DNA of 64,000 bases from Cyanobacteriota bacterium (GCA_019752015.1 JAIEMQ010000041.1:4469-68468), one strand, 5' to 3'; counted from the stretch's first letter, positions 10,919 to 60,693 are shown. Notes: a model not told the origin generated them from the sequence alone. Made by a program: numbers and translations.

Positions 10919-11572
10919 GTGCTGAACAACGTCGGTGATGTGTTGTCGGTCGTGCTACGGGGCAGCCTGGGCCGTTCGGGACGCAAGCGCGCCCGGCGGG
11001 CCACCAAATTCCTCACCGGTCATCGCGGGTTCCTGAGCACCAGCGCGATCATCGGCGCCGCCGGTGTGGCGTGGGGCATCTACGACACGCTCAAGGCGAA
11101 GAACCAGAGCGCCATCGCCGTACCCGCGGTTCCAGGGGTTCCCACAGTTCCAGGGGTTCCAACGGTGGGTTCGGTTCCACCTATTCCGGCAGCAGTCGAG
11201 GCGGCGCTCGATCCGGTGGCGCGCATCATCCGCCTGGCGGTGTCGGCGGCGAAAGCCGACGGCACGCTGAGCGAGCAGGAGCGCGAGGTGATCATGGCCC
11301 GCGCCAGGGAAGCCGGCCTCGAGTCGATCGTTGCCGCCGAGCTCAACCAGGCGCGTCCGCTTGGCGACATCGTGCGCGGCGTGATCGATCCGGACATGAA
11401 AAAGGAACTCTACGTGCTCGCCTTTACGATCGTGCGGGCGGATGAAAGCGTGTCGGGCGCCGAGCGCATCTACCTCGCGCAGCTCGCACACCAGTTGGGT
11501 CTCGAGCCGGCCGCCGCGCAGGCGCTCGAGCAGGAGACTTCGGCGAAGATCGATTCAGAAACGGAGAACTGA
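10919..11572 (+). CDS. TerB-like / DUF533-family protein
   Basis: 217 aa. GTG start preceded by GGAGGGA. The C-terminal half (RIIRLAVSAAKADGTLSEQEREVIMARAREAGL ... LYVLAFTIVRADESVSGAERIYLAQLAHQLGL) shows the paired-helix TerB/DUF533 pattern. Confidence 0.75.
   Translation: MLNNVGDVLSVVLRGSLGRSGRKRARRATKFLTGHRGFLSTSAIIGAAGVAWGIYDTLKAKNQSAIAVPAVPGVPTVPGVPTVGSVPPIPAAVEAALDPVARIIRLAVSAAKADGTLSEQEREVIMARAREAGLESIVAAELNQARPLGDIVRGVIDPDMKKELYVLAFTIVRADESVSGAERIYLAQLAHQLGLEPAAAQALEQETSAKIDSETEN
11128..11178 (+). repeat. In-frame 9-nt-periodic GGTTCC array inside the TerB-like CDS, encoding a (VPx)n linker
   Basis: GGTTCC or a near-copy occurs at 11128, 11137, 11146 (AGTTCC), 11155, 11164 (degenerate) and 11173. 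The peptide is AVPGVPTVPGVPTVGSVPP. Confidence 0.85.
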
Positions 11573-11575
11573 CAC

Positions 11576-12625
11576 ATGGACGGCTCGAACCAGTGGTACA
11601 TGGCCATCGGCGGCCATCAGGTGGGACCGGTCAGCCAGCAGGAGATCATCACCAACCTGCAGAACGGCAGCATCGACGCGGAGACGCTGGTGTTTTCCGC
11701 GGGCATGAGTCAGTGGCAGAAGGTCAAGGACGTGCCCGCCTTCGCGGTCTATGTGAGAGGCTCGGCCGCTGCGGCGGGACCCGCCCCTGGCGCGTTCGTG
11801 CCGCCGCCGGCGCCGGGCCGCCGCTCGCACGACATCGACTTCGAGATCCACGGTAACGAAATGCAGTTCGTCGAAGTCGCGCTCGATCCGGGTGAAGGCG
11901 CCGTCGCTGAAGCCGGCTCGATGATGTACATGACGCAGGGCATCAACATGGAGACGGTGTTCGGCGACGGCAGCCAGCAGCGTCCGGCCGGTGTGATGGA
12001 TGCGCTGCTCGGCGCCGGCAAGCGTCTGCTGACGGGTGAGAGCCTGTTCATGACGGTCTTCACCAATGCCGCCGGTGGCGGCAAGGCGAAGGTCGCCTTC
12101 GGCGCACCGTACCCCGGCAAGATCATCCCGATGGATCTGCGCGCGCTCGGCGGGCATCTCGTCTGCCAGAAGGACTCGTTCCTCTGCGCCGCGCGCGGCG
12201 TATCGGTCGGCATCGCGTTCCAGAAGAAGCTCGGCGTCGGCCTGTTCGGCGGCGAGGGCTTCATCATGCAGAAGCTCGAAGGCGACGGCCTGTGCTTCGT
12301 GCACGCCGGCGGCACGATCCATCACTTCGATCTCGCCGCCGGTGAGACGATGCGCGTCGACACCGGATGTCTCGTGGCGCTGCAACCCAGCGTCAACTAC
12401 GACATTCAATTCGTCGGCGGCATCAAGACGGCGTTGTTCGGCGGCGAAGGCATTTTCTTCGCCACGCTGCAGGGGCCCGGCCGCGTCTGGCTGCAGTCGC
12501 TGCCGCTGAGCCGTATGGCCGATCGCATCTACTCCGCGGCGCCGCAGAGCAAGGGCTGGCGCAAGGAAGAGGGCTCGATTCTCGATCGCGTCGGCGGCCT
12601 CGGCGATCTGATCGACGGACGATGA
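11576..12625 (+). CDS. GYF_2 (DUF4339) domain fused to an AIM24/TIGR00266-family domain
   Basis: 349 aa. The N-terminus WYMAIGGHQVGPVSQQEIITNLQNGSIDAETLVFSAGMSQWQKVKDVP is GYF_2-like. The remainder (IDFEIHGNEMQFVEVALDPGEGAVAEAGSMMYM ... VWLQSLPLSRMADRI) is AIM24/DUF124-like. Confidence 0.8.
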   Translation: MDGSNQWYMAIGGHQVGPVSQQEIITNLQNGSIDAETLVFSAGMSQWQKVKDVPAFAVYVRGSAAAAGPAPGAFVPPPAPGRRSHDIDFEIHGNEMQFVEVALDPGEGAVAEAGSMMYMTQGINMETVFGDGSQQRPAGVMDALLGAGKRLLTGESLFMTVFTNAAGGGKAKVAFGAPYPGKIIPMDLRALGGHLVCQKDSFLCAARGVSVGIAFQKKLGVGLFGGEGFIMQKLEGDGLCFVHAGGTIHHFDLAAGETMRVDTGCLVALQPSVNYDIQFVGGIKTALFGGEGIFFATLQGPGRVWLQSLPLSRMADRIYSAAPQSKGWRKEEGSILDRVGGLGDLIDGR

Positions 12626-12629
12626 CGGC

Positions 12630-12662
12630 CACAGATTAGACACAGATTGGACGCAGAGGGTT
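12630..12662 (+). repeat. Tandem 11-mer array CACAGATTAGA / CACAGATTGGA / CGCAGAGGGTT filling the stop-to-start spacer
   Basis: Read directly. The upstream stop is at 12623-12625 and the next ORF starts at 12661. Confidence 0.85.
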
Positions 12663-13080
12663 GGTGGTGAAGCAGGGCGGGTGGACGTGCAAGCGGTGCG
12701 GGCGGCAGTTCGCGAATGCGAACCAGAACCACTCCTGCAAGCCGCCCGTGCCGATCGCGACGCACTTCGAGGGTCGTCCGCCATGGATGCGAACGGCCTT
12801 CGACGCCATCGCCAACAAGCTCGGGAAAGCCATTCGCGTCGACGGCGTGGCGAAGGGCATTCACTTCGCCGCGCGCTCGACTTTCGCCGGCATCATCACC
12901 ACCAAAGAGAAAATGCGCATCGAGTTCCTGCTCGATCGCGTCGTCAAGAGTCCGCGTGTCTTTAAAATAGAGAAGCTAGGCCCGACGCGCATCGCGCATC
13001 ATGTCGAGCTGACGGACGCCGGCGGTGCCGATGCCGAGCTGATCGATTGGCGGAAGCGGTCTCGTGACGGCCACTCGTGA
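12661..13080 (+). CDS. DUF5655-like protein with an N-terminal CxxC...HxC zinc-ribbon-like motif
   Basis: 139 aa. WTCKRCGRQFANANQNHSC, then a pattern typical of DUF5655 proteins (IHFAARSTFAGIITTKEKMRIEFLL...). The start codon is non-ATG (TTG/GTG cluster), so the exact start is uncertain. Confidence 0.65.
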   Translation: MVVKQGGWTCKRCGRQFANANQNHSCKPPVPIATHFEGRPPWMRTAFDAIANKLGKAIRVDGVAKGIHFAARSTFAGIITTKEKMRIEFLLDRVVKSPRVFKIEKLGPTRIAHHVELTDAGGADAELIDWRKRSRDGHS

Positions 13081-13083
13081 AGC

Positions 13084-13488
13084 GTGGCGGGTGATCCGTC
13101 GATGACCCCGCCGTCGTTCGAGCTCTGGCTGGAATGGGAAACCGGCGACGCCCTTCGAGCAGCTGCTCCGAAAATATTTCGACGGCCGGGCCGATCAGAG
13201 GACTCTGGACCTGCTCAAATGATGTTTGCCAGGGCCTTGCGTGACGGCGTCAAGCGTGGCCGGATTCGATCGAGCGTTCGCATCTGGCAAAGCCCGCGCG
13301 TGAAGGTCGGCAACAAGTACGCGATAGACGACGGGCACATCGTGATCGACTCGATCGACAAGATCACGCGCAAGCAGATCACCTACGACCTGGCGAGGTG
13401 CGCTTTCACTACCGGCCCGCAGGTGCGTGGGACACGCCGCCGAAATAAGTACTCGCAGAAGGCACAGAAGCCGGCCAATGTGACATGA
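13084..13488 (+). CDS. ASCH/PUA-like domain protein with an atypical C-terminus
   Basis: 134 aa. The core RIRSSVRIWQSPRVKVGNKYAIDDGHIVIDSIDKI resembles ASCH domains. The basic tail (RGTRRRNKYSQKAQK) does not look like the family. Confidence 0.45.
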   Translation: MAGDPSMTPPSFELWLEWETGDALRAAAPKIFRRPGRSEDSGPAQMMFARALRDGVKRGRIRSSVRIWQSPRVKVGNKYAIDDGHIVIDSIDKITRKQITYDLARCAFTTGPQVRGTRRRNKYSQKAQKPANVT

Positions 13489-13495
13489 TGCTCTG

Positions 13496-13981
13496 ATGAC
13501 AAGATTCTTGCGCGTGGCGATGTTGTCGGTGATCGTGATGCCGTCGCCAGCCTGGGCGCAGGATGCGGCGGCGGAAACGGCGATTCGCGGCATCGTTGCC
13601 GAGCAGGCCGACGCCTGGAATGCCGGCGACGGCGCCCGATATGCGAGCCGGCTCGCGCCCGACTCCTCCTTCACCAATATTTTCGGGATGGTGATGTACG
13701 GCGCGCCGGCGTTCGTGAAACGCCATCAGGAAATCCTGGCAACGTTCTACAAGGGCACCACGAAAAAACACGTCGTGCGCAAGATTCGCTTCGTCACACC
13801 CGATGTCGCGCTCGTCGACATCGACAACGAGGTGCGCGGCGTCAAGGCGATGCCCGCCGGCATTCCAGTGCCGTCCGACGGCATCATCAAGACCCAGTTA
13901 ATGGAAGTGTTCGTCCGTCGAAACGGGCAATGGTGGATCGAGGCGTACCACAACGTCGACACCAAGCGGTCAACGCCCTAG
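13496..13981 (+). CDS. SgcJ/EcaC-family (SnoaL-like, NTF2-fold) protein, secreted
   Basis: 161 aa. Signal peptide. AIRGIVAEQADAWNAGDGARYASRLAPDSSFTNIFG and a C-terminal WWIEAYHN are typical of DUF4440/SgcJ proteins. Confidence 0.8.
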   Translation: MTRFLRVAMLSVIVMPSPAWAQDAAAETAIRGIVAEQADAWNAGDGARYASRLAPDSSFTNIFGMVMYGAPAFVKRHQEILATFYKGTTKKHVVRKIRFVTPDVALVDIDNEVRGVKAMPAGIPVPSDGIIKTQLMEVFVRRNGQWWIEAYHNVDTKRSTP

Positions 13982-14016
13982 AAGGTCGGCCCGCAACTAA
14001 GGTACGATTGCCCTTC

Positions 14017-14916
14017 ATGCGCCCGGTCTTCAGATCGGTGATTTCTGTGCTTTCTGTGGCCCTGGTGTTTGTGGCTGTGCCTTCCGCGGCGCAGCTTCGG
14101 ACCGCCTACCCTGAGAAGCGCGGCCTCAAACGTTCCGAGTTTCCGCGGACGATCAAGCTCGCCGAAAACGTCTACGGCTACGAGGACATCCGCAATCCCG
14201 GGTTCACGACCGTCAGCCTGTTTGTCGTCGGCAACGACGGCGTGCTGCTGGCCGATGGACAGGGAAGCCCCGAAGCAACGAAGAAGCTGCTCGACGCGAT
14301 CGCCAGGGTCACGCCCAAGCCGGTGAAGTGGTACGTCGTCGGCTCGGATCACGGCGATCACACTGCGGGCAATCCGGTGCTGTCGAAAGACATCAAGTTC
14401 ATCGTCACGCCGTTTTCGAAGACGCAAATGAAGCTCGATGCGCCCGCGATGATTGGCGATCGCCAGGTGATCGACATCGGCGGCATCGAAGTGCAGGCGC
14501 TCTATCTCGGCCGCGCGCATACCGGCGGCGACCTGCTTCTCTATCTGCCGAAGCAGAAGATCCTCTTCATGAGCGAGGTCTATCTCAATCGCGTTTTCCC
14601 GGCGATGCGCTCCGCCTATCCATCGGAGTGGCTCAGCGTCATCAACCGGGCGTTGCAGATGGATGTCGAGCGCTATGTCCCCGGCCACGGCTTCATCGAG
14701 GAGCCGAACGCCTCGCGCGAAGAGCTGGTCGAATATCAGAAGGCAATGCGTGCGGTGATCGCCGAGGTCAACCGTCTTCACAAGCTGGGCCTGTCGGCAG
14801 ACGATGCGGCGAAGCAGGCGGAGTGGGGACCGTACAAGGAGTGGTTTCTCGTCGAGCAGCAAGGCCCAATCGCGGTGCGCAAGATCTACGAAGAGATCGA
14901 AGGGAAACTCAAATAG
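14017..14916 (+). CDS. MBL-fold metallo-hydrolase, secreted
   Basis: Start set at ATG 14017 because the upstream extension overlaps the previous gene. Signal peptide VALVFVAVPSAAQ. Metal-binding segment VVGSDHGDHTAGN, later GRAHTGGDLLLYLP and PGHG. Confidence 0.8.
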   Translation: MRPVFRSVISVLSVALVFVAVPSAAQLRTAYPEKRGLKRSEFPRTIKLAENVYGYEDIRNPGFTTVSLFVVGNDGVLLADGQGSPEATKKLLDAIARVTPKPVKWYVVGSDHGDHTAGNPVLSKDIKFIVTPFSKTQMKLDAPAMIGDRQVIDIGGIEVQALYLGRAHTGGDLLLYLPKQKILFMSEVYLNRVFPAMRSAYPSEWLSVINRALQMDVERYVPGHGFIEEPNASREELVEYQKAMRAVIAEVNRLHKLGLSADDAAKQAEWGPYKEWFLVEQQGPIAVRKIYEEIEGKLK

Positions 14917-14918
14917 CC

Positions 14919-15341
14919 ATGGCTGAACAATCCTTTGCCAGTCACACGCATCGTCCGACGGAAACCGGCGTGCTCTGGGCGCTGTCGATGGTGGCGCTCG
15001 TCCTGATCGTCCAGCAGTTCCGCGGCGCCGAGACGCGCGACTGGGCGATCCTGGCGTTGACGCTCGCGATGTTCCTGGTCGGCTGGATCAGCCGCGCCTA
15101 CATCGTGCGGCTGCAGGACCGCATCATCCTGCTGGAGATGAAAGTGCGCGCGGCCGAAGTGTTGCCGGCGGGCCAGGATGCGGCGCTCGCCAAGCTCACC
15201 AAGCAGCAGATCGTCGCGTTGCGCTTCGCGCCGGACGACGAGCTGGGCCCGCTGCTGGAGCGCGCGGCGCGCGAGAACCTGGCGCCGAAGGACATCAAGG
15301 CGGCGGTGAAGAACTGGCGCGCCGATCACTACCGCACCTAA
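14919..15341 (+). CDS. Hypothetical small membrane protein (two predicted TM helices)
   Basis: 140 aa from ATG 14919. Hydrophobic segments VLWALSMVALVLIVQQF and WAILALTLAMFLVGWI. The longer ORF 14328..15341 is an out-of-context extension over the MBL gene. Confidence 0.65.
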   Translation: MAEQSFASHTHRPTETGVLWALSMVALVLIVQQFRGAETRDWAILALTLAMFLVGWISRAYIVRLQDRIILLEMKVRAAEVLPAGQDAALAKLTKQQIVALRFAPDDELGPLLERAARENLAPKDIKAAVKNWRADHYRT

Positions 15342-15355
15342 TCGAAAGCCTCGCG

Positions 15356-15589
15356 GTGACGCCGGAAGAACAACAGGAAGTGCGCCGCCTGATCGACGCA
15401 CACGAGCACACGCTGCAGGTCTGCAAGGCGTGCGCGGAAACCACCCGCGACCTGGCGTGGGAAGTGAAACGCGGCAGCGTCCCGTCCGCCGAGTCACTGG
15501 CCGCGACGCTCGCCGAAGTCGAGCGCGTGCTCGAGGACATTGGCAAAGTGGAAATCGCCATTGCTGAAATGAAAGCGGCGCTCTGGTGA
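15356..15589 (+). CDS. Hypothetical 77-aa protein, translationally coupled to the PAS kinase
   Basis: GTG start. Helical-looking sequence with a CKAC pair. The stop overlaps the GTG start of the next gene (GTGA). Confidence 0.45.
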   Translation: MTPEEQQEVRRLIDAHEHTLQVCKACAETTRDLAWEVKRGSVPSAESLAATLAEVERVLEDIGKVEIAIAEMKAALW

Positions 15590-18488: not shown

Positions 18489-18606
18489 TTTCGACCTACG
18501 TCCATTGGATAAGGCACTTAGGTTGTATGACGAAATTCAGATTGGGGCTGTGAAATGTCGGGGCAGCGGATGGAGCAGGCGCGAAAGTCGTGACTCGGAG
18601 CCCAAA

Positions 18607-22997: not shown

Positions 22998-22998
22998 A

Positions 22999-23123
22999 GG
23001 TTCCATTGGTTCCAAAGCTTCCAATAGCATTGTTCTGACGAGGTGTCGGGAGTGCTGAGAACAATTGGAACTCCGATAGAACCACGCCTTTGGAACCGCT
23101 GGAACCCGTGGAACCTTGGAACC
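22999..23123. repeat. Foldback element: three tandem 9-mers (GGTTCCATT, GGTTCCAAA, GCTTCCAAT), a central imperfect hairpin, then four inverted 8/9-mers (TTTGGAACC, GCTGGAACC, CGTGGAACC, TTGGAACC)
   Basis: Read directly. It fills the whole gap between the convergent stops at 22997 and 23127. Inner stem ATTGTTCT (23029-36) pairs with AGAACAAT (23058-65), and TTCCA pairs with TGGAA. Confidence 0.85.
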
Positions 23124-23126
23124 CTA

Positions 23127-32440: not shown

Positions 32441-34318
32441 ATGAGAGTTCGTGCACGATTCCTGCTCGTCACGGCTGCGGCATTGTCCGCAGCCGTCGTC
32501 AGCGCGCAACAGCCTTCGACTGCGCTCAGGCCAGGGAACTGGGAGCACGTCGGGCAGGATCCGGGCGGAACGAAGTACTCGACGCTCGATCAGATCAACA
32601 CCGGCAACGTGAAGTCGCTGCAGAAGGCGTGGACCTTCCATACCGGCGACAAGACCGGCTTCTTCGAGAGCACGCCGCTGGTGATCGACGGCACGATGTA
32701 CCTCACCGCGCAGAACGGAATCTACGCGATCGATCCGTTGACCGGCACGCAGCTGTGGAAGTTCGAGTCCGACGGCGGCACGCGTCGCGGTCTCACGTAC
32801 TGGCCCGGTGATGCGGCGACGCCCGCGCGCATCTTCGGATCGGCGCAGGAGCGGTTGATCGCGCTCGACGCAAAGACCGGCCGCATGATTCCACAATTCG
32901 GGCAGGGCGGCTTCGTCGATATGGGCACGACGATGGCATCGCCGGCGGCGCTCTATAAGGACATCCTGATCACCCCGGCCACATCGCCGATCATCCGCGC
33001 CTATAACGCCCGCACTGGCGCCGAGATCTGGAAGTTCGATCTGGTCGCGCAGCCCGGCGATCCGAATAACAAGACCTGGGAAGGCGAGTCGTGGAAGGCG
33101 GTCGGCGGCACCAACACCTGGGGCTACCTCACGATCGACACCGAGCGCGGCATCGTCTACATCCCGACCTCGATCGCCGGCGAAAACGATTACGTCGGCG
33201 TGACCCGGCCGGGCGACAACCTGTACGGCACGTCGCTTGTTGCGGTTGATATCGCCACCGGCAAGAAGCTGTGGCACCAGCAGCTCGTGCATCACGACAT
33301 CTGGGACAACGATCTCGGCGCGCATCCGACGTTGATCGACGTCACGCGCAACGGCAAAACGATCCCGGCAGTGGCGCAGATCACGAAGATGGGCCTGCTC
33401 TTCATCTTCAATCGCGTCACCGGCGAACCGATCTTCGGAGTTGAGGAACGCGCGGTGCCGCAGAGCACGGTGCCTGGCGAGAAGACGGCGGCGACACAGC
33501 CGTTCCCGGTCAAGCCGCCACCACTGGCGCGCAACTCGATCACGCGATCGGAGCTGCCGACGAACATCTCGCCTGAGCACACCGCGTATTGCCAGGGGTT
33601 ATGGGAGAAATACGGCCTGCAGGATTCCGTCCCGTATACGCCGTGGCATGTGATGAAGGACGTGGTCGTCTTCCCGGGCGCGATCGGCGGCGGCAACTGG
33701 GGCGGCGTGGCCTACAACAAGAAGCTGGACCTCGTGATCACGAACGTGATGAACGCGGGGCAGTGGGGCCATCTCGAAAAGAGCGAAGGCGCTCCCGTTG
33801 GCGGTGACCAGCCGAACGCAGCGGCCGGACGCGGCGGGCGCGGAGGTTTCGGAGGCGGCGGCGGGCCGCCGCGCAGCCGCGAGCCGTATCGCAAGGTGAC
33901 GCCGGAAGGCGGGCGCTTCTGGGATCAGAAGACGCAGTACTCGTGCGCGCCGACGCCGTGGGGCGAACTGATCGCCGTCAACGCAAACACCGGCGATATC
34001 GCGTGGCGCTCGACGCTCGGCAGCTTCGACGAGCTCGAAGCGAAAGGCATCAAGGCCGGCCGTCCCAGCCTCGGTGGTGCGATCACTACCGCCGGCGATC
34101 TGGTGTTCATTGCGGCGACCACGGACGGCTACTTCCGCGCCTTCGATGCGCGCAACGGCGCCGAATTGTGGAAGACGAAGCTGACGGTGCCGGGACATTC
34201 GATCCCATCGACATACATGGGGAAGGACGGCAAGCAGTACATCGCGATCACCGTGGGCGGCGGCGGATTCCTGCGCAGCCCGCAGAGTGATGAAGTCGTG
34301 GCCTTCCGCCTTCCGTAA
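32441..34318 (+). CDS. PQQ-dependent dehydrogenase (quinoprotein glucose/alcohol dehydrogenase family), secreted
   Basis: 625 aa. Signal peptide. Propeller W-motifs (LQKAWTFHTGD, TPLVIDGTMYLTAQNGIYAIDPLTGTQLWKF, GDLVFIAATTDGYFRAFDARNGAELWK). Confidence 0.85.
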   Translation: MRVRARFLLVTAAALSAAVVSAQQPSTALRPGNWEHVGQDPGGTKYSTLDQINTGNVKSLQKAWTFHTGDKTGFFESTPLVIDGTMYLTAQNGIYAIDPLTGTQLWKFESDGGTRRGLTYWPGDAATPARIFGSAQERLIALDAKTGRMIPQFGQGGFVDMGTTMASPAALYKDILITPATSPIIRAYNARTGAEIWKFDLVAQPGDPNNKTWEGESWKAVGGTNTWGYLTIDTERGIVYIPTSIAGENDYVGVTRPGDNLYGTSLVAVDIATGKKLWHQQLVHHDIWDNDLGAHPTLIDVTRNGKTIPAVAQITKMGLLFIFNRVTGEPIFGVEERAVPQSTVPGEKTAATQPFPVKPPPLARNSITRSELPTNISPEHTAYCQGLWEKYGLQDSVPYTPWHVMKDVVVFPGAIGGGNWGGVAYNKKLDLVITNVMNAGQWGHLEKSEGAPVGGDQPNAAAGRGGRGGFGGGGGPPRSREPYRKVTPEGGRFWDQKTQYSCAPTPWGELIAVNANTGDIAWRSTLGSFDELEAKGIKAGRPSLGGAITTAGDLVFIAATTDGYFRAFDARNGAELWKTKLTVPGHSIPSTYMGKDGKQYIAITVGGGGFLRSPQSDEVVAFRLP

Positions 34319-34320
34319 AT

Positions 34321-34355
34321 CAGGGATCAGGGATCAGGGATCAGGGGTCAGGGGT
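34321..34355 (+). repeat. Tandem heptamer array (CAGGGAT)x3 (CAGGGGT)x2 occupying the entire stop-to-start spacer
   Basis: Read directly. Upstream TAA at 34316-18 and downstream ATG at 34360. Confidence 0.95.
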
Positions 34356-34359
34356 CACG

Positions 34360-42668: not shown

Positions 42669-46453
<3,785 letters not shown>

Positions 46454-46454
<1 letters not shown>

Positions 46455-51164: not shown

Positions 51165-51173
51165 GATCGGATC

Positions 51174-51770
51174 GTGCGAATTGCCATCGCAATTCTTGTC
51201 CTGGTCACCTGCGCCGCTCCGGTGCGCGCGCAATCATTTGCAGCCGGCGTTCACTTCGCGTCATCGAAGTGGAGCGAATTCGACGGCAGCGATAGCGGCT
51301 TTGGCGGCCGATTCACCTGGAAGCTGTCGACGATGGTTGGTGTCGACGCCGAGTTGACGTGGTATCCGTCGGACTTTCAACGCGACGCGGTTCCGTTCAG
51401 CCGGCAGCGCGTCGAAGGCATGTTCGGCGCGACGATCGGTCCGCGCATCCACCGCATCCGCCCGTTTGCGAAGGCGGCGGCGGGTTTCCTGAAGGTGAGT
51501 CCCACCTCCGGTGGCTTCGCGTGCGTTGCGATCTTCCCGCCACCTCTGGCGTGCCTGCTCGCCGGCGGCAAGACGATGCCGGCCTACGAAATCGGCGGCG
51601 GTGTTGAAATCGATGCCGCATCGCGTACCTTCATTCGCGCCGATGTCTCCGATCGTATCCTGCGCTATCCGGGGCCGGTGTTTCGCGGCTTCGGCCTCGA
51701 TGAGCGCGTCGACGACAACTTTTTCGGCGGGGCGCTGAAATTCTCGATCGGCGCCGGCTGGCGTTTCTAA
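51174..51770 (+). CDS. Outer-membrane beta-barrel protein (OMP_b-brl type)
   Basis: 198 aa. GTG start, signal peptide ending VRAQS, alternating beta pattern, C-terminal ...GAGWRF. Confidence 0.75.
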   Translation: MRIAIAILVLVTCAAPVRAQSFAAGVHFASSKWSEFDGSDSGFGGRFTWKLSTMVGVDAELTWYPSDFQRDAVPFSRQRVEGMFGATIGPRIHRIRPFAKAAAGFLKVSPTSGGFACVAIFPPPLACLLAGGKTMPAYEIGGGVEIDAASRTFIRADVSDRILRYPGPVFRGFGLDERVDDNFFGGALKFSIGAGWRF

Positions 51771-51965
51771 GGTCCGGCTAAAGCCGGACCCTCACAAGAA
51801 TCATGTGAGGGTCCGCCTTTTGGGCGAACCGACTTCCCAATAATCATGTGAGGGTCCGCCTTTAGGCGAAACGACTTCTCAATAATCATGTGAGGGTCCG
51901 CCTTTAGGCGAACCGACTTCTCAATAATCATGTGAGGGTCCGCCTTTAGGCGGACCAATCTGTGT
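51771..51965. repeat. REP-like hairpin in inverted orientation, followed by about four tandem 42-43-bp units each carrying TGTGAGGGTCCGCC
   Basis: GGTCCGGCTAAAGCCGGACCCTCACA is at 51771-51796. TGTGAGG starts at 51804, 51847, 51889 and 51931. Only the last unit keeps an intact stem (GGTCCGCC-TTTA-GGCGGACC). Confidence 0.9.
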
Positions 51966-51979
51966 AGAATCATCCCGCT

Positions 51980-54199: not shown

Positions 54200-54201
54200 A
54201 T

Positions 54202-54241
54202 CTGTTGACCTATTGATCTATTGATCTATTGATCTGTTGAT
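54202..54241 (+). repeat. Tandem octamer array CTGTTGAC (CTATTGAT)x3 CTGTTGAT occupying the entire stop-to-start spacer
   Basis: Read directly. Upstream TGA at 54197-99 and downstream ATG at 54243. Confidence 0.95.
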
Positions 54242-54242
54242 C

Positions 54243-54640
54243 ATGAAAGCCACCGGGACGTTCGACGTCAAGATCACGCCGCAAGGCAGCGACCTGTGGC
54301 CCGAGGGACCGAACCTCGGGCGCATGTCGCTCGACAGGCAGTATCACGGCGATCTCAACGCGGCGGCGAAGGGCGAAATGCTCACCGCCGCGGGCCTTGC
54401 CGTGAAAGAGTCCGCGTCGTACTCCGCGATCGAGCGGGTGAGCGGCACGCTGCATGGCAAGAAGGGCAGCTTCGCGCTGCAGCCACCGGCATCATGGATC
54501 GCGGCAAGCCAAGCCTGACGATCACCGTCGTCCCCGACTCGGCAACCGGCGAGCTCGCCGGCCTCACCGGGAAGATGGACGTCATCATCGAAGGCAAGCA
54601 GCACTCGTACACGTTCGACTACGAGATACGGAAGAGCTGA
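54243..54640 (+). pseudogene. DUF3224-family gene interrupted by a -1 frameshift near 54483
   Basis: Frame 0 gives MKATGTFDVKITPQ...GKKGSFALQ. The family-typical continuation TGIMDRGKPSLTITVVPDSATGELAGLTGKMDVIIEGKQHSYTFDYEI is in frame 2 (ORF 54296..54640). ctgcagCCacc looks like CAC reduced to CC. Confidence 0.7.
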
Positions 54641-54669
54641 GCCTCTTCTGGCGTCTATTTCGCAACCCA

Positions 54670-55132
54670 ATGCGAATTCTTTTCGCGCTTCTGTTCGTCA
54701 CGTTCATCGCCACCAACTCGCCGGCGCAAGGCCTCGGCTACGTCGAGGGCGGACTCGCCGGCGTCCATGGATTCTTCGGCCAGTGGTTCGACTCAACGCA
54801 TATCGGTGGCGGCGGTGAAGCGATCGTCGCCGATCGAATCGGCATCGGCGCCGAAGTCGGATTCTTCAACCGGCTGATCGTGCTCTCCCCGAACGCCACG
54901 GTGCATCTCGGCGGCGTTTCCAACGCGAAGTTTTCACCGTTCGTGACCGCTGGGTATTCGTGGATGGGCATCGGCGACGGCGAAGGCATGTTCAGTGCCT
55001 ACAACGTCGGCGCCGGATTCAAATTACTGGGCGATTGATCGCGTCGCTTTCAGGATGGAGTTCCGCGATCACTTCCGTCCCGACGATCGCGGTCCGGCCA
55101 GTACTGGTCGGGGCGAGCGGGCGTTTCGTTAA
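54670..55132 (+). pseudogene. Small outer-membrane beta-barrel gene with an apparent +1 frameshift (extra A in the AAA run at 55021-55023)
   Basis: The annotated frame stops at 55038 (..GAGFKLLGD*). Removing one A gives ..GAGFNYWAIDRVAFRMEFRDHFRPDD... ending at 55132, a typical OMP_b-brl C-terminal strand pattern. Confidence 0.6.
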
Positions 55133-55324
55133 CAATAGCGACACTCTGGATCAGTGGTATCGAGCGGGTACGCATATTTCGCAACAATTATGGAGGACAG
55201 GGCTGCAGACCTACCGAATTGCTGAAAGTCAAGGACCAGCGTTGGACGTTCCCGTTGCTACGACGCTCCCGACTTTGATTGCGTTCAACCTTCTTGCCAA
55301 CTAAACTGAACGCGCCAAATATCT

Positions 55325-56020
55325 ATGACTCAGCGGGCGCTAAAATGGGATGACCGTCGGTTCGAGTTTGAGTCTTACCTGCGATCTTCCAATCTGAAGC
55401 CAGCGTATAAGAGTTCGCTTGGCGCTTTGTTCGCCATGAACTGCATGAAGGTATTGCCGCATATCCGCGATGAAGTGGTCGATTGTGTCTTTGCCGATCC
55501 GCCGTTCAATCTTGGCAAGGAGTACGGCAAGAATTCGAATGATGCAGTACCTGACGGCGAGTACGTTCGTTGGTGTAAATCATGGCTAGATGAGTGTGTT
55601 CGGGTCCTCAGACCTGGCGGCTCAATCTTCGTTTACAACCTGCCCAAGTGGAACGTCATATTAGGGGCACATTTGACAGTGCAGGGGATGGCATTCAGAC
55701 ACTGGATTGCCGTGGAGATTAGTTCTTCGTTGCCAATTTCCGGACGCCTTCATCCGAGCCACTATGGTTTGCTGTATTACACGAAAGGCAAGCCAAGAAC
55801 CTTCCATCGAATTCGTACGCCGATCCTAACGTGCAGGCACTGTGGCGGCGAGTTGAAAGACTATGGTGGTCATCGTGGCGCCATGAATCCTAAAGGTGTC
55901 ACCTTGAAGGACGTCTGGACAGACATTCCACCCGTAAGACACTGGAAGTTCAAATCGAAGAGTCGTCGCGCGAATGCTCTGTCGATTAACCCCCGCTTGA
56001 TGGGTGCAACGCCGTGTTGA
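55325..56020 (+). pseudogene. C-terminally truncated beta-class DNA amino-methyltransferase (DPPF motif) on a low-GC island
   Basis: 231-aa ORF. Motif IV VFADPPFNLGKEY lies near the N-terminus. CRHCGG zinc-ribbon-like segment. The ORF ends after ..RRANALSI.. without the C-terminal AdoMet-binding FxGxG motif expected for this circular permutation. No continuation is seen in any frame. Confidence 0.65.
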
Positions 56021-56242
56021 CGGTGTGTAGAGCGACGACTGATGCTTCGCAAGGATCGCGTGATGCTAGCACGATAGGTCGATTGCCCATCTCGCGATCC
56101 GGCTAAACTCTTATCCCTGGATTTATTACTGGCCACCCCTGCCGAGGCGTCGGCCGTAGCCGCCGTCCGCATTGCCGCGGCCGATCGCCTGACGCGCGAT
56201 TTCGGCGAGGGACACTGGTCCGCCCACACCAACGAAGCGGCG

Positions 56243-56650
56243 GTGCTGCGCGACATCAAGGTGTCGCGCGTGCTGGCGCTGCGCGATGGCGGCGAGATCA
56301 TCGGCACGCTGGCGCTGCAGACCAGGAAGCCGTGGGCGATCGATCTGTCGTACTTCACGCCCTGCGCGAAAGCCCTCTATTTGATCAACATGGCGGTGCT
56401 GCCGGATCGCCAGCGCAAGGGAGCCGGTCGCGCGCTGCTGGTCGAGGCACTGGCGATGGCGCGATCGTTTCCCGCCGACGCGATTCGGCTCGACGCCTAC
56501 GACTGCGCCGCCGGCGCGGGCGATTTCTATCGCAAGTGCGGATACCGTAATGTTGGCGGCAAGACGTATCGCGGCGTGCCGCTGTTGTACTTTGAGCAAC
56601 TCACCCACCTTCGCCAAGGCTACGGTGGGCAGGCAGGAGCAGCCCAGTGA
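56243..56650 (+). CDS. GNAT-family N-acetyltransferase; in-frame homology extends upstream to about 56126 with no canonical start (probable 5' truncation)
   Basis: Acetyl-CoA motif LPDRQRKGAGRALL. The upstream in-frame sequence LLATPAEASAVAAVRIAAADRLTRDFGEGHW looks like a GNAT N-terminus. The open frame begins right after the TAG at 56075-77 and has no ATG/GTG/TTG before 56243. Confidence 0.65.
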   Translation: MLRDIKVSRVLALRDGGEIIGTLALQTRKPWAIDLSYFTPCAKALYLINMAVLPDRQRKGAGRALLVEALAMARSFPADAIRLDAYDCAAGAGDFYRKCGYRNVGGKTYRGVPLLYFEQLTHLRQGYGGQAGAAQ

Positions 56651-57243
56651 TCGATCCGAAGCCCGTGACTCTCGAGCGCGACGGCATTCGCCTCGAGCCG
56701 TTATCGCCCGAGCATCACGACGGTCTCGTCGCCGCGGCAACAGATGGCGAGTTGTGGAAGCTGTGGTTTACATCGGTGCCGGAGCCGGGCACGGTCGCCA
56801 ATTACATCCGTGATGCCGCGAAAGGGCAGAGCGACGGCCACATGCTGCCGTGGGCGGTCCGCGATCTGAAGACCAACACCATCGTCGGCAGCACGCGCTA
56901 CCACGACATCGTCGCCGCGATCGATCGCGTCGAGATTGGCTACACCTGGTACGCACAACGCTGCCAGCGCACCAACGTCAACACCACCTGCAAGCTGCTC
57001 CTGCTCGAGCACGCCTTCGATAAGCTGGGATGCGCTGTTGTCGGCCTTCGCACCGACAACTTCAACTTCCGATCGCAGAAGGCGATCGAAGCACTCGGCG
57101 CGAAGAAAGATGGCGTCCTGAGGCGTCACCAGGCACGGCGCGATGGCACCGTGCGTGATTCCGTGATGTACTCGATCTTGAAGGAAGAATGGCGGGATGT
57201 TCGCCGCCACCTGGAACTGCGTTTAGAACGGAACAGCACCTAA
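56647..57243 (+). CDS. GNAT-family N-acetyltransferase (RimJ/RimL-like, Acetyltransf_3)
   Basis: 198 aa. IRLEPLSPEHHDGL, EIGYTWYAQRCQRTNVNT and SQKAIEALGAKKDGVLRRH. The GTG start overlaps the upstream stop (GTGA). Confidence 0.85.
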   Translation: MIDPKPVTLERDGIRLEPLSPEHHDGLVAAATDGELWKLWFTSVPEPGTVANYIRDAAKGQSDGHMLPWAVRDLKTNTIVGSTRYHDIVAAIDRVEIGYTWYAQRCQRTNVNTTCKLLLLEHAFDKLGCAVVGLRTDNFNFRSQKAIEALGAKKDGVLRRHQARRDGTVRDSVMYSILKEEWRDVRRHLELRLERNST

Positions 57244-57274
57244 CTTGGAAGCTGTAACCCGGGACCCGTAACCT

Positions 57275-59242
57275 TTAATCGGCGTTGGGATCTTCCAGGT
57301 AGGTGTAACCCATCAACGCCTCTTCGTAAAAACGAAGCAGGCGTCCTGCCTGGGTGTCCTGCATGCGGCCGGCGTTGATCGCGGCTTCGACGTCCCTGCG
57401 CAGCTTGCCCATCAGATCCTCGGCGTCGAACTCGACGTACTCGAGCACCTGCTTGACGCTGTCGCCCTTGATGATGTGCTCGACGCGCGCGCCCTCGGTG
57501 TGGTCGATGCCGTTCTCGCCGAGCGAGATGTGCACCGCGTGCGTGTCGCCGAACAGGTTGTGCAGGTCGCCGAGAATTTCCTGGTACGCGCCGACCAGGA
57601 ACACGCCGAGGTAATACGGCTCGCCGTTGAACTTGTGCAACATGATGGTCTTCTTCACGTCGCGGCGATCGATGAACTGATCGAGCTTGCCGTCGGAATC
57701 GCAGGTGATGTCGCTCAGCACCGCGTGATTGACCGGCCGCTCGTTGAGGCGGTGGATCGGCATCACCGGGAACAGCTGCTTGATCGCCCAGCTGTCCGGG
57801 ATCGACTGGAACAGCGAGAAGTTGCAGAAATAGGTGTCCGAGAGCATCTCTTCGAGCGCCTGCAGCTCTTCAGGCACTTCCGACATGCCCTGGCAGAGCT
57901 TGTAGATCTTTTCGCAGATCGCGAAGTAGAGATTCTCGGCGTGTGAGCGCTGTTCGAGCGTCAGGTAGCCGCCGCTGAACAGGTTCATCGCCATGTCCAG
58001 TGCCTGCTGCGCGTCGTGATACGTCTCGAGGGCGTTGCGCTGCGTGACGTTCTTGTAGGCCTCGATCAGGTCGACCAGCGGCTGCTCGAATTCCTCTTTG
58101 ACCTCGAGCGGAATCTTCTCTTCGCCGAAGCCGAGCGTGCCGAGCACGTTGAACACCAGCATGCTGTGATACGCGGAGATGGCGCGGCCGCTCTCCGACA
58201 CGATCGTCGGATGCTTGACGCCGACTTCGTCGCACACCGTCTGGATGTGATAGACGACGTCGTTGGCGTACTCCTGCAGCGTGTAGTTCATCGACGATTC
58301 GAAGTTGGTCTGCGAACCGTCGTAATCGACGCCGAGCCCGCCGCCAACGTCCATGTACTGCAGGCCGGCGCCCTGCTTGGCGAGCTCGCAGTAAACGCGG
58401 GCCGCTTCGTTCAGCGCGCCCTTGATGATGCGGATGTGCGTGATCTGGCTGCCGAGATGGAAGTGGAGCAGCTTGAGGCAGTCCTCCATGCCGCGCTTCT
58501 TCAGTTCCTCGAAGCCGCGCAGGATTTCCGTGACGGTCAGGCCGAACTTCGAGCGGAAGCCGCCGGACGACTGCCAGCGTCCCGAGCCGCGCGCGGCGAG
58601 CTTGACGCGCATGCCGATGTTCGGGCGCACGCCGACCTTCTCGGCGTACTCGAGCACCAGCTCGAGCTCGGTGTACTTCTCGACGACGGGGATGATCTGG
58701 CGGCCCATCTTCTGCGCCAGCATCGCCATCTCGATGAATTCGAAATCCTTGAACCCGTTGCAGATGATCGGCGTGTCGTTGGTGGCCATTGCCGACACGG
58801 CGAGCAGCTCCGGCTTGCTGCCGGCCTCGAGCCCGAAGCCGTACTGCGCGCCGAAGTTCAGCACTTCTTCGACCACCTGCCGCTGCTGGTTGACCTTGAT
58901 CGGATAGACGCAGCAGTACTTGCCCTGGTACTGGTTCTGGTTGATCGCGTTCTGGAACGCCCCATGGATCTCGCCGAGGCGGTGCTTCAGGATGTCGGTG
59001 AAGCGAATCAGGATCGGCACCGCGAGGCCGCGGAGCTGCAGGCGATCGACCAGGCGTTTGAGGTCCACGCTCCTGGCCGGCTCCTTGGTGGGATGGACCT
59101 GCAGGTGGCCCTGCTCGTTGACGGAGAAGTAGCCTTGTCCCCAGCGTGGCACGTCATACAACTCGGCGGCCTCGGTGGCCGACCAGGGTGACGTGCCGGG
59201 ACTTGCTCCGGTCATCAGGCGTCCGCCTGCCAGTGTGCTCAT
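57275..59242 (-). CDS. speA: Biosynthetic arginine decarboxylase
   Basis: 655 aa. YDVPRWGQGYFSVNEQGHL. PLP-lysine context YPIKVNQQRQVVEEV. Characteristic C-terminal region. Confidence 0.93.
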   Translation of the reverse strand: MSTLAGGRLMTGASPGTSPWSATEAAELYDVPRWGQGYFSVNEQGHLQVHPTKEPARSVDLKRLVDRLQLRGLAVPILIRFTDILKHRLGEIHGAFQNAINQNQYQGKYCCVYPIKVNQQRQVVEEVLNFGAQYGFGLEAGSKPELLAVSAMATNDTPIICNGFKDFEFIEMAMLAQKMGRQIIPVVEKYTELELVLEYAEKVGVRPNIGMRVKLAARGSGRWQSSGGFRSKFGLTVTEILRGFEELKKRGMEDCLKLLHFHLGSQITHIRIIKGALNEAARVYCELAKQGAGLQYMDVGGGLGVDYDGSQTNFESSMNYTLQEYANDVVYHIQTVCDEVGVKHPTIVSESGRAISAYHSMLVFNVLGTLGFGEEKIPLEVKEEFEQPLVDLIEAYKNVTQRNALETYHDAQQALDMAMNLFSGGYLTLEQRSHAENLYFAICEKIYKLCQGMSEVPEELQALEEMLSDTYFCNFSLFQSIPDSWAIKQLFPVMPIHRLNERPVNHAVLSDITCDSDGKLDQFIDRRDVKKTIMLHKFNGEPYYLGVFLVGAYQEILGDLHNLFGDTHAVHISLGENGIDHTEGARVEHIIKGDSVKQVLEYVEFDAEDLMGKLRRDVEAAINAGRMQDTQAGRLLRFYEEALMGYTYLEDPNAD

Positions 59243-59309
59243 CTCTTAGTTAGAAGAATACAAGATGCTCGTTCATTTTTTTCGGATGAATCGAGAAAAA
59301 ATGTAGCCT

Positions 59310-59507
59310 GTGGCGATGGCAACCCAGGTTCCGGCGATCAAGGTCTTGCTGCTGCCGAAAGACAACGCGCTCGGCACCATCTTCGGCGGCGCCATCCCCT
59401 CGCACATCGACCTGGCGTCGGCGGTCGAAGCGCGCAAGGTGACGGAGGCGGAAGTGGTGCTCGTCGCCGTCGGGCCTGACGAAGCGCCGGTACCAATTCG
59501 TCCTTAG
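59310..59507 (+). pseudogene. Possible 5' fragment of a hotdog-fold acyl-CoA thioesterase (YciA-like)
   Basis: 65-aa ORF. LLLPKDNALGTIFGGAIPSHIDLASAVEARK resembles the N-terminal half of YciA-type thioesterases (P.D.N..G.iFGG.i....D.A). The frame ends in a TAG that is also the first bases of the tandem octamer array. Confidence 0.4.
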
Positions 59508-59537
59508 GCACCCAGGCACCGAGGCACCCAGGCACCT
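59506..59537 (+). repeat. Tandem octamer array (AGGCACCN)x4 ending 2 nt before the thrB ATG
   Basis: AGGCACCC, AGGCACCG, AGGCACCC, AGGCACCT, read directly. ATG at 59540. Confidence 0.95.
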
Positions 59538-59539
59538 GA

Positions 59540-60475
59540 ATGATTGCAGTCTTCGCTCCCGGATCGGTTTCTAACGTCGCGTGCGGCTTCGACATCATGG
59601 GGTTTGCACTCGAAGAACCCGGCGATGTGGTGGTTGCGGCGCCTCAGGACGATCCCGGTGTGTCGATTGCCGCGATCCACGGCGACGACGGCCGGTTGAC
59701 GACGGATCCGCTGAAGAACACCGCGTCGGCGGCGGTGCTCGCGCTGCTCGAGCGGCTCGAGACGACTCGCGGGGTCGCGTTGACGATTCACAAGGGCCTG
59801 CCGCTCGCGAGCGGCATCGGCAGCAGCGGCGCCAGCGCCGTCGCCGCGGTGGTGGCCGCCAACGAGCTGCTCGGCCGGCCGGCGCCGATGTCCATGCTGC
59901 TCGAGTGCGCGATGGCTGGAGAGTTTGCGGGCTGCGGCTCCGTCCATCCCGACAACGTCACGCCGTCGTTACATGGCGGCTTCATCCTCGCCCGCAGCGC
60001 GCAGCCGCCCGACATTGTCCGCCTGCCCGTGCCCGAAGGCCTGGCGTGCGCGGTTTTGCACCCGAAGATGGAAGTGGAGACCGGCGCCGCGCGGACGCTG
60101 CTCGGCAATCAGGTGGCGCTGAAGGATGCGACCAGGCAGTGGGCCAACGTCGGCGGCCTCGTCGCGGCGCTCTACACCTCTGATCTCGGGCTGCTGTCGC
60201 GATCGCTGGTCGACTCGATCGCGGAACCGAAGCGCGCCTCGCTCGTGCCCGGATTCTTCGACGTGAAGTCCGCCGCGATCGCCGCCGGCGCACTCGGCGC
60301 GAGCTTGTCCGGCTCCGGTCCGTCGATCTTCGCGCTCGCGCCATCACTCGAGATCGCCCGCGCCGCGGGTGACGCAATGCGAACCGCCTTCGCGCGCGCG
60401 AGCAACGTCGGCGCCGATCTCTGGGTGTGCCCTGTAGGTCGCAGCGGCGCGCGTGTCATAAGCAGCCACAGATGA
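59540..60475 (+). CDS. thrB: Homoserine kinase
   Basis: 311 aa. GHMP kinase motif GLPLASGIGSSGASAVAAVVA. N-terminal APGSVSNVACGFD. Adjacent to thrC. Confidence 0.9.
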   Translation: MIAVFAPGSVSNVACGFDIMGFALEEPGDVVVAAPQDDPGVSIAAIHGDDGRLTTDPLKNTASAAVLALLERLETTRGVALTIHKGLPLASGIGSSGASAVAAVVAANELLGRPAPMSMLLECAMAGEFAGCGSVHPDNVTPSLHGGFILARSAQPPDIVRLPVPEGLACAVLHPKMEVETGAARTLLGNQVALKDATRQWANVGGLVAALYTSDLGLLSRSLVDSIAEPKRASLVPGFFDVKSAAIAAGALGASLSGSGPSIFALAPSLEIARAAGDAMRTAFARASNVGADLWVCPVGRSGARVISSHR

Positions 60476-60693
60476 CACAGATTTCACAGATTAGAGCTCG
60501 CCCCGCGGCGCCGGTCGAAGACCGGCGCGCGCGTCGAACCGCCGACGATCGAAAATCAAGAGAGCATTCGTGACCCGGCGGGCTCTCTTGATTTCGATCG
60601 TCGGCGGTTCGACCGGCGGCCTTCGGCCGCCCGCGGGGCGAGCGCATTTGGTGAGCGCGCCGTCTTTAATCTGTGTAATCTGTGTAATCTGTG
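60467..60693. repeat. 227-bp foldback element between thrB and thrC, with terminal inverted arrays of three 9-mers (CACAGATGA, CACAGATTT, CACAGATTA ... TAATCTGTG x3)
   Basis: Inner arms pair as follows. GAGCTCGCCCCGCGG (60494-508) pairs with CCGCGGGGCGAGC (60631-43). TCGAACCGCCGACGATCGAAAATCAAGAGAGC (60535-65) pairs with GGCTCTCTTGATTTCGATCGTCGGCGGTTCGA (60581-612). Each arm also carries a local hairpin (60509-28 and 60612-30). The thrB stop codon lies inside the first 9-mer. Confidence 0.9.

Follow-up and report, generated by a model that had tools for sequence, protein, structure and literature searches.

Short tandem arrays at gene junctions and in protein linkers of a Vicinamibacterales-like genome: probable products of slippage and template switching that persist where added DNA is tolerated

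A stretch of 64,000 nucleotides deposited under the name Cyanobacteriota bacterium (GCA_019752015.1, JAIEMQ010000041.1:4469-68468; the whole stretch is called the window below) carries short tandem arrays between its genes, as the arms of foldbacks and, read in frame, within proteins. Our best explanation, to which we assign a probability of roughly 0.65, is that these arrays are repeats generated by slippage and template switching and kept where extra DNA is tolerated. In kind they are probably long simple-sequence repeats, the units ranging from 6 to 11 nt and most often measuring 7, and belong with the heptamers of Xanthomonas and Nostoc, the cyanobacterial STRR sequences and the 5-11-nt class of Mrazek. 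For most arrays a sequence-specific function is improbable; the hairpins of inverted pairs may have secondary effects on the mRNA. Repeats of the heptamer type have a record that goes back to 1990 (STRR), with a survey in 2007, and their origin and function are still unexplained.

Results

The window holds far more short-unit arrays than expected by chance

Arrays were called with Tandem Repeats Finder (TRF), the class being defined by a period of 6-11 and at least three copies, and chance was modelled by 200 simulated sequences at each of the Markov orders 1, 3 and 5 (600 in total). At a TRF score of at least 50 the window contains 8 such arrays compared to a simulated mean of 0.00, and at a score of at least 40 it contains 11 compared to means of 0.19-0.29. 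A preliminary description of this DNA had named a series of array loci, each of which TRF recovered. The excess over shuffled or GC-matched DNA that it expected was borne out against the Markov simulations as well as against GC-matched DNA of other phyla, and the three architectures that it distinguished (whole stop-to-start spacers, inverted array pairs and in-frame linker arrays) all hold. The window arrays consist of near-perfect head-to-tail units and are longer than composition predicts, as are long simple-sequence repeats; in DNA of the lineage heptamers are the commonest unit length and the GC content is high (0.57-0.68 in the window), as in the 5-11-nt class. Genes were placed with a codon-usage caller trained on Pfam-confirmed open reading frames (ORFs), which gave 50 genes covering 90% of the window. 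The arrays and array pairs are, by window position:

3932-3957, no strand assigned: (TCTAGA) x4.3, TRF score 52, 100% matches, self-complementary
11128-11161, plus strand: (GGTTCCAGG) x3.8, TRF score 40, in frame in a DUF533 protein
12630-12657, plus strand: (CACAGATTAGA) x2.5, consensus CACAGATTRGA, called by TRF, 4 nt past the AIM24 stop codon
22998-23126, no strand assigned: foldback in a convergent spacer with arms (GGTTCCANN) x3 and (GGAACCNN) x4; GGAACC arrays face GGTTCCANN arrays at 22999-23125
34319-34357, plus strand: (ATCAGGG) x5.6, TRF score 64, whole spacer
43323-43396, minus strand: CCGGGAG x4.6 (43323-43354) facing CCGGTTC x4.4 (43366-43396), in frame in MetH
45430-45460, minus strand: (CGGGAGC) x4.4, in-frame linker of MetH
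54200-54242, plus strand: (ATCTRTTG) x5.4, also listed as ATCTATTG, TRF score 65, whole spacer
59506-59536, plus strand: (AGGCACCC) x3.9, upstream of the thrB ATG (59540)
60467-60693, plus strand: CACAGATNN x3 (60467-60493) facing TAATCTGTG x3 (60667-60693), thrB-thrC foldback

Array density is a trait of the lineage

MetH of the window is 80% identical to MetH of Acidobacteriota metagenome-assembled genomes (MAGs) and 66-72% identical to that of MAGs named Vicinamibacterales or Vicinamibacteria, and an AIM24 homologue at 89% identity carries the NCBI name Vicinamibacterales. Judged by these identities, the window derives from an Acidobacteriota, Vicinamibacterales-like soil genome. For comparison we used 165 related loci, numbered with the prefix L, which were drawn from genomes (MetH loci), metagenomes (amidase loci) and AIM24 contigs. 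TRF was run with the same settings throughout, and at a score of at least 45 the array densities per 100 kb were:

Window: 14.1
Vicinamibacterales genome loci: 9.1
Close metagenome relatives: 11.2
More distant metagenome relatives: 5.7
29 loci of other phyla with a GC content of at least 0.58: 1.4 (one heptamer)
Low-GC loci of other phyla: 4.3

The window density is thus about 10 times that of GC-matched DNA from other phyla. The figure for low-GC loci comes mainly from a few heptamer-rich lineages, namely an Ignavibacteria MAG, a Daejeonella MAG and a Flavobacteriales MAG.

The 626 kb of in-lineage DNA yielded 67 arrays, 34 of them with period 7, 12 with period 8 and 11 with period 9. Of the 65 to which a position could be assigned, 43 lie between genes, even though 89% of the DNA is predicted to be coding, which corresponds to an about 16-fold enrichment by density. 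By position, 26 lie between co-directional, 6 between convergent and 11 between divergent genes, and 22 are in coding sequence; many begin 0-6 nt past a stop codon. The catalogue further holds 7 adjacent inverted pairs (6 within a contig and less than 150 nt apart, plus the thrB-thrC arms). The density in the window and in its relatives therefore marks array density as a trait of the lineage, which GC content, chance or a single assembly do not explain.

Two observations concern unrelated lineages. Dense heptamer arrays of up to 17 copies occur in the low-GC Ignavibacteria, Flavobacteriales and Daejeonella loci (L051, L059, L066). In a Bacteroidota MAG (L064, 9879-9984), CACAGATT faces AATCGGTG in inverted pairs immediately upstream of metH.

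Arrays fill spacers that are tight in relatives

The array at 34319-34357 constitutes, by sequence and Pfam assignment, the entire spacer between the stop codon of a PQQ-dehydrogenase gene (TAA, 34316-34318) and the start of the ThuA gene (34360). Likewise, the array at 54200-54242 is the entire spacer between the penicillin-amidase stop codon (TGA) and the DUF3224 start (ATG at 54243). The array at 3932-3957 lies in a minus-strand co-directional spacer between an NHL-repeat gene (stop at 3971) and a histidine kinase gene (start at 3843), as assigned by gene calls and Pfam, and lies 13 nt past the stop codon on that strand. Two further loci had been put forward as whole spacers and qualify in a restricted sense: the array at 59506 does so only since a decayed 65-codon thioesterase remnant stops at the first TAG of the array, and that at 12630 only if the next gene starts at 12661-12664.

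Comparison of orthologous loci showed that the window arrays occupy junctions which are tight in some relatives. The amidase-DUF3224 junction measures 1-4 nt in six relatives and contains (CAGGCCAR) x10-11 in L081 and L105; in L084, which has a different downstream gene, (CCAGTAG) x4 follows the amidase stop codon. Between DUF533 and AIM24 the window has 3 nt and L165 has 8 nt, whereas L161 carries a heptamer array and L164 a REP doublet. The junction between the outer-membrane protein (OMP) gene and the amidase gene is 21 nt long in L081, L083 and L094 and is occupied elsewhere by REP hairpins, (CCGGGAT) x6, (CCCAAGA) x6 or ATCTGTG x3. The thioesterase and thrB genes overlap by ATGA in L084, L092 and L100, where the thioesterase is intact (about 140 codons); upstream of thrB, L105 has GGTGCC units in the opposite orientation to the AGGCACCC array of the window. 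Judged by these alignments, arrays at orthologous junctions are insertions specific to a lineage, in places where the spacer otherwise measures 0-21 nt.

Two side observations belong to these junctions. The thioesterase remnant in the window (59310-59507) is a hotdog-fold protein of 65 codons that has lost an internal stretch and stops within the AGGCACCC array; decay is seen in the L105 copy too. Upstream of the amidase gene (window 51960-51979), a -10-like TAGAAT stands 9-10 nt before the ATG and is conserved in nearly all relatives, a position that suggests a very short or absent amidase leader.

Arrays vary in unit number and appear to turn over fast, and several units match neighbouring codons

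L081 and L105 are 99.5% identical over 3.4 kb, and their sole gap is one 8-nt array unit. This one-unit difference, a single case, shows slippage directly. L081 and L094 are about 97% identical, and their alignment breaks at two array-bearing junctions and one array-free coding stretch. One break has an inverted pair in L081, a single array in L094 and none in the window; at another, an array has replaced the C-terminus of an ArsR-methyltransferase in L094. On such comparisons array turnover appears fast. The preliminary description had proposed to compare orthologous loci for presence, absence and unit number, and arrays do come and go between them, down to the single unit that separates L081 from L105.

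Several units match codons at the ends of the adjoining genes. The L084 unit CCAGTAG and the L161 unit AACTGA each consist of the last codon plus the stop codon, the L081 unit CAGGCCAG is one mismatch away from CAGGCCGG in the C-terminal codons of the amidase, and the thrC-side unit TAATCTGTG is one mismatch away from TGATCTGTG at the native thrC start, ATG ATC TGT GTC. Tight spacers, with at most 15 nt of other sequence, account for 6 of 22 co-directional arrays compared to 0.8% of array-free co-directional intergenic bases. We considered insertion targeted to stop codons as the cause of this excess and rejected it, as the excess is largely explicable by tolerance of arrays that arise in last or first codons, of which L094 provides an example.

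In-frame arrays write linkers into MetH and a DUF533 protein

The array at 11128-11161 translates as VPGVPTVPGVPT and lies in the linker that joins the membrane segment of the DUF533 protein to its TerB-like domain. Orthologues carry GGTGCCAG x4.9 (L161), GGTGCCATG x5.1 (L165) or no array in this linker. In metH, the facing arrays at 43323-43396 form an inverted repeat of 34 nt with 85% complementarity and are read in frame as 25 residues in a variable loop of the activation domain; the stretch has no alignment to E. coli 1MSK, and the insertion is absent in L001 and shorter in L007. A Rickettsia palindromic element was rejected as an identification of this palindrome, which has no long consensus and is reduced or missing in the latter two relatives. 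The second array, at 45430-45460, encodes 12 residues of the linker between the homocysteine and pterin domains. Ten relatives have arrays in this linker, with about ten different units. L094 MetH is 92% identical to that of the window, yet its linker unit is CCCTGAT compared to CCGGCTC in the window, and in L007 the linker array has the opposite orientation. Repeats with 7-nt units are able to write new linker peptides into an essential enzyme.

The MetH frame of L007 breaks directly past a heptamer array (13099-13160), and one C fewer in a CCCC run restores 11 residues. This is probably a homopolymer error in a long-read MAG, not a pseudogene. Phase variation was rejected as an account of this frameshift, as removal of the one C restores the frame.

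A change in unit number might nevertheless switch or tune neighbouring genes, so that the arrays would be contingency loci serving bet-hedging as in Haemophilus or Neisseria. Unit number does differ between the near-identical contigs L081 and L105, arrays adjoin start codons, where spacing matters, and a one-unit change in the metH heptamer array would shift the frame. However, the neighbours (metH, thrB/thrC, amidase, ThuA, DUF533, AIM24) are housekeeping or metabolic genes and not surface, virulence or restriction genes, slow switching is to be expected from 3-6 units per array, and all in-frame arrays keep the frame except that of L007, which the extra C explains. Rehm et al. likewise rejected a contingency function for the Xanthomonas repeats (PMC4692102). 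We consider this reading very improbable.

Foldbacks built from inverted arrays

The foldback at 22998-23126 fills the entire convergent spacer between the stop codons of an aldo-keto reductase and an O-methyltransferase gene. It contains an inverted repeat of 40 nt with 78% complementarity, and its predicted RNA fold has -55.3 kcal/mol (z = -3.9). The same spacer measures 8 nt in L164 and 3 nt in L165 compared to the 129-nt foldback of the window.

The thrB-thrC element (60467-60693, 227 nt) takes up most of its spacer and is predicted to fold into a branched hairpin of -171.7 kcal/mol (z = -14.3), its L105 counterpart reaching -185.4 kcal/mol (z = -15.8). The outer stem is built from the arrays (CACAGATNN) x3 and (TAATCTGTG) x3, whose inverted-repeat relationship was confirmed. 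Foldbacks of 129-235 nt occur at this junction in the window, L105, L091, L084 and L089, while L092 and L100 have a spacer of 5-20 nt and no foldback. The thrB stop codon lies inside the 5' arm in the window, L091 and L105 and within 6 nt of the arm in L089; from the end of the 3' arm to the thrC ATG there are 8 nt in the window and 7-26 nt across the window, L105, L091 and L089. Every arm unit has changed in step, with CACAGAT/ATCTGTG in the window versus CACGGAT/ATCCGTG in L105. In L089 both arms are built from another 11-nt unit, present six times on one side and four times on the other.

A core of about 150 nt (window 60496-60663 compared to 6689-6834 of L105, an 88%-identical relative) aligns better as the reverse complement. 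The outer arrays and the asymmetric 3' segment have the same orientation in both, which suggests that the core was flipped by recombination between the inverted stems.

The position of the foldback raises the question of whether arrays are selected cis-acting RNA or DNA elements that provide spacing or factor binding at stop and start codons, form G-rich quadruplexes, or act as hairpins in translational coupling or in ending or stabilizing transcripts. In the coupling version, the downstream start would be shut off by the hairpin and become accessible once a ribosome that terminates within the 5' arm has melted it. The location of the thrB stop in or abutting the 5' arm with the 3' arm shortly before the thrC ATG would fit such a role, as would the extreme stability of the fold (z = -14 to -16), the matched arm substitutions between genomes, the over-representation of arrays at tight junctions, and the bias to G3 runs described below, which recalls the quadruplex-forming Xanthomonas repeats (PMC4692102). 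On the other hand, units differ wholly between close relatives at the same junction, spacers of 0-4 nt suffice in many relatives, G3-containing and other units are alike in copy number, and copying at the DNA level can keep the arms of a palindrome matched without selection. Moreover, no canonical intrinsic terminator or promoter consensus was found at the foldbacks, and an Rfam search of the window returned no RNA family match. Taken together, a selected cis-acting role is possible but doubtful. As to binding, the preliminary description had suggested arrays of sites for a nucleic-acid-binding protein; a single conserved binding-site array is unlikely, because the units differ between relatives at the same junction.

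An insertion bordered by a CACMGAT array

Between AIM24 and an MBL-like gene the window has a 1.4-kb insert (12626-14060) with three small genes (DUF5655, an unknown ORF and DUF4440). L161 and L165 lack the insert and have 9 nt between the two genes; the array at 12630-12657 is the left edge of the insert. In the corresponding region of L164 (11054-11750), AIM24 is followed by CACCGATTAGA x3 and then an XRE HTH gene. As side observations, the left edge is a CACMGATT array in both the window and L164, and the gene downstream has the complementary TCTGTG or ATCGGTG among its signal-peptide codons, so that the two sides agree in the A/C difference between the units. A similar arrangement surrounds a GxxExxY-like remnant in L091 (8600-9230).

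CACMGAT and foldback arrays might accordingly be the ends of non-autonomous mobile elements, or recombination sites, whose enzyme is encoded elsewhere in the genome. This would account for units shared by unlinked loci within a genome, for the opposite orientation of orthologous arrays (the MetH linker in L007, the array upstream of thrB in L105), for inverted CACMGAT arrays that flank different cargo (the 1.4-kb insert, the HTH gene of L164, the L091 remnant) and for the inverted thrB-thrC core. Several findings speak against it. No target-site duplication was visible at any filled-versus-empty junction compared, BLAST found no second copy of either foldback in about 2.5 Mb (the window plus the fetched loci), only orthologous copies, and Pfam scans of the 50 window ORFs revealed no transposase, integrase or RAYT, in keeping with the earlier statement that the window contains no candidate mobilizing enzyme. 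In addition, the right-hand 'arms' of the cargo belong, or may belong, to the 5' coding sequence of the gene that follows, and several units are plainly derived from adjacent codons. We regard mobile ends as distinctly unlikely. On the same three absences, a MITE or Foldback-type mobile element was rejected as an identification of the foldbacks.

Unit families recur at unlinked loci

Two arrays were taken to share a unit if they had the same period and agreed within one mismatch at any rotation or strand. By this definition 14 of 36 within-contig pairs share a unit, and between genomes 8.4% of pairs do. The preliminary description had reported two cores at unlinked loci. CACAGAT is enriched, with 12 matches compared to 5.7 ± 2.6 expected, a number reached by 0 of 100 shuffles; the lone copy near 51957 is on the minus strand. 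Same-strand clusters of CAC[AC]GAT number 13 in 1.19 Mb of in-lineage DNA compared to 2 in 1.27 Mb of other DNA. GGTTCC fared less well. As an enriched word it had to be dropped (35 matches compared to 29.2 ± 5.9 expected), but its matches are clustered, 14 of the 35 falling in four array loci. The loci at 11128 and 22999 have GGTTCCA at period 9 in common, and the orthologues of the former have GGTGCC.

Candidate quadruplex repeats among the G-rich units are (GGGATCA)4, (GGGAGCC)4 and (GGGTGCCT)4. About half of the heptamer units do not contain a G3 tract, and units with and without one do not differ in copy number. Selection for four G-tracts was rejected on this ground, and the peak at about 4-5 copies is in part an effect of the threshold of detection.

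An origin by local slippage has to be weighed against several of these observations. Among within-contig pairs separated by more than 1 kb, 8 of 30 have a unit in common compared to 0.7-3.3% by chance, which upholds the earlier claim of unit families at unlinked loci, whereas local seeding predicts none. The identical 11-mer CACAGATTAGA stands at both 12630 and 60485, and CAC[AC]GAT arrays occur at five distinct sites of the clade, including about 20 copies in L136. GGG or CCC is present in 18 of 34 heptamer units compared to 18% expected, many being of the form GGGANNC. The matched changes in the thrB-thrC arms point, as far as the compared sequences go, to selection for pairing or to copying from arm to arm, and the excess at tight junctions needs either tolerance of changed gene termini or a positional preference. 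Finally, why this lineage and why a 7-nt unit is not explained by the present analysis. The recurrence of families is the feature that simple local slippage explains least well.

An active copying process, be it ectopic template switching, a recombinase or a foldback-type element, might instead spread CACMGAT/ATCTGYG, GGGANNC and GGGTGCC to unlinked gene boundaries in either orientation. Its inverted arms would flip their contents, bound variable cargo (the 1.4-kb insert, the L164 HTH gene, the thrB-thrC core) and pair the upstream stop with the downstream start region in the mRNA. We consider such a process unlikely.

REP-like hairpins and other features of the window

Two further repeats form a class apart from the short-unit arrays:

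51771-51979, plus strand: REP-like cluster of five hairpins (one GGTCCGGCTAAAGCCGGACC, four of 42 nt with TGTGAGGGTCCGCCTTTAGGCGRACC), TRF period 42, 3.8 copies, 94% matches
63844-63924, no strand assigned: REP-like inverted doublet (REPIN-like) just past the M3 peptidase stop codon

The first lies between the OMP and amidase genes, where L087 has one hairpin, and a doublet also occurs in L164 between DUF533 and AIM24. As conserved GC-rich extragenic hairpins at several loci, with inverted doublets, both agree with REP/REPIN sequences; the family sequence is (TGTGAG)GGTCCGSCTWWAGSCGGACC.

A CRISPR array (222-1272), which runs toward the window start, has a period of 72 nt and contains the 36-nt repeat GTTGTTCCGCTGAGAAATCAGCGGCCCCATTGAAGC about 15 times; it is followed by a response regulator gene (1460-2173) and has no cas gene next to it. 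At about 54650-56630, a segment with a GC content of 0.57 contains an orphan N6/N4 DNA methylase (55325-56020) and unannotated ORFs, and spans about 2 kb in the window compared to about 0.5 kb in L081 and L105.

Discussion

A possible route to the arrays

An origin of the arrays by slippage and template switching could proceed in five steps. First, a short local duplication would seed an array, often from the region of a stop or start codon, as the codon matches of four arrays show. Second, replication slippage would add or remove whole units, as seen once between near-identical contigs. Third, intramolecular template switching or recombination would mirror an array into an inverted pair and may flip what lies between the arms; the inverted pairs, the orientation flips and the one inverted core argue for this step. 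Fourth, concerted turnover would quickly alter the unit sequence. Fifth, selection would purge arrays that damage genes, so that the survivors would be found in tight stop-start gaps, convergent gaps and in-frame flexible linkers or loops, because extra DNA is tolerated there. An array kept between tightly packed genes would then make up the whole spacer. The preliminary description had also suggested a repeat-generating or mobilizing activity. A mobilizing activity gained no evidence, there being no target-site duplication, no additional foldbacks and no mobilizing enzyme in the window.

The material amounts to a dense comparative series in the abundant soil Acidobacteria, in which the same junction may be empty, differently filled, occupied by a single or an inverted array, or different by one unit. 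This series makes the seeding of units, their genome-wide recurrence and a possible preservation of translational coupling by hairpins testable. For annotation, the arrays explain why Vicinamibacterales MAGs have odd spacers, displaced stop codons and alignments that break off.

Comparison with known repeats

The combination of architectures had been thought not to match any described bacterial class, but all three have already been described for long simple-sequence repeats (PMC4679880, PMC4692102). The heptamers of Xanthomonas (GGGAATC) and Nostoc (GGGGAYT) are enriched in non-coding DNA, favour co-directional ORFs at up to 50 bp from a stop or start codon and are rarer between divergent ORFs (Rehm et al. 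2015, PMC4692102). Xanthomonas GGGAATC forms 70-75 inverted array pairs per genome, and a minority of arrays lies inside ORFs; the arrays adjoin genes of all functional classes and mostly stand between the same gene pairs in two species, varying in length and sequence but keeping the single or inverted type (PMC4692102). The arrays described here resemble them in units of about 7 nt, usually at least four copies, a strongly intergenic placement near co-directional stops and starts, frequent inverted pairs, some arrays in ORFs, the lack of a functional theme among neighbouring genes, and length and sequence that vary between relatives, with the single or inverted type retained. Several units (GGGATCA, GGGAGCC, GGGAACC, GGGGATC, GGGATCC) are of the same flavour. 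They differ in the Acidobacteriota host, in having many unit families instead of one dominant unit, in the commonness of 8-9-nt units and in families that are not G-rich (ATCTRTTG, CACAGAT, TCTAGA).

The survey of Mrazek, Guo and Shah (2007), as related in PMC4679880 and PMC4692102, describes 5-11-nt units with heptamers commonest, a scattered phylogeny, a proposed origin by polymerase slippage and a typical occurrence in large, high-GC genomes of non-pathogens; as related there, its ten genomes richest in such repeats include no Acidobacteria. By the same account, multiples of three predominate within genes, whereas here 7-nt units are read in frame in metH. TAACTGA heptamer arrays stand directly upstream of start codons in Beggiatoaceae, cyanobacteria and Bacteroidetes (MacGregor 2015, PMC4679880). 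These and the STRR sequences share with our arrays direct heptamers in 2-6 copies, a position a few nucleotides upstream of starts, proximity to essential genes, an occasional place in ORFs and genome-specific preferred units. TAACTGA genomes have essentially one unit and one inverted pair in 170 sets, whereas here many units coexist and roughly a third of the arrays are in inverted pairs.

Likeness to other systems is partial. That to REP, BIME and REPIN sequences is limited to the hairpin family at 51771-51979 and 63844-63924, the window having no RAYT gene. The MetH palindrome resembles Rickettsia palindromic elements as an in-frame palindromic insertion, but those are dispersed with a consensus of about 100-150 bp, whereas it consists of 74 nt of heptamer units. 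Drosophila Foldback elements likewise have inverted arms of tandem units, unlike them our foldbacks being accompanied by neither a transposase in the window nor a target duplication. Borg repeats are also both genic and intergenic, but they are perfect, have longer and more numerous units and, within genes, units in multiples of three. In the library searched, we found no paper that links Vicinamibacter with tandem repeats. Compared to the described long simple-sequence repeats, the arrays are new in their host lineage, in the many unit families that occur side by side, in the frequent 8-9-nt units and in an unusually clear comparative series.

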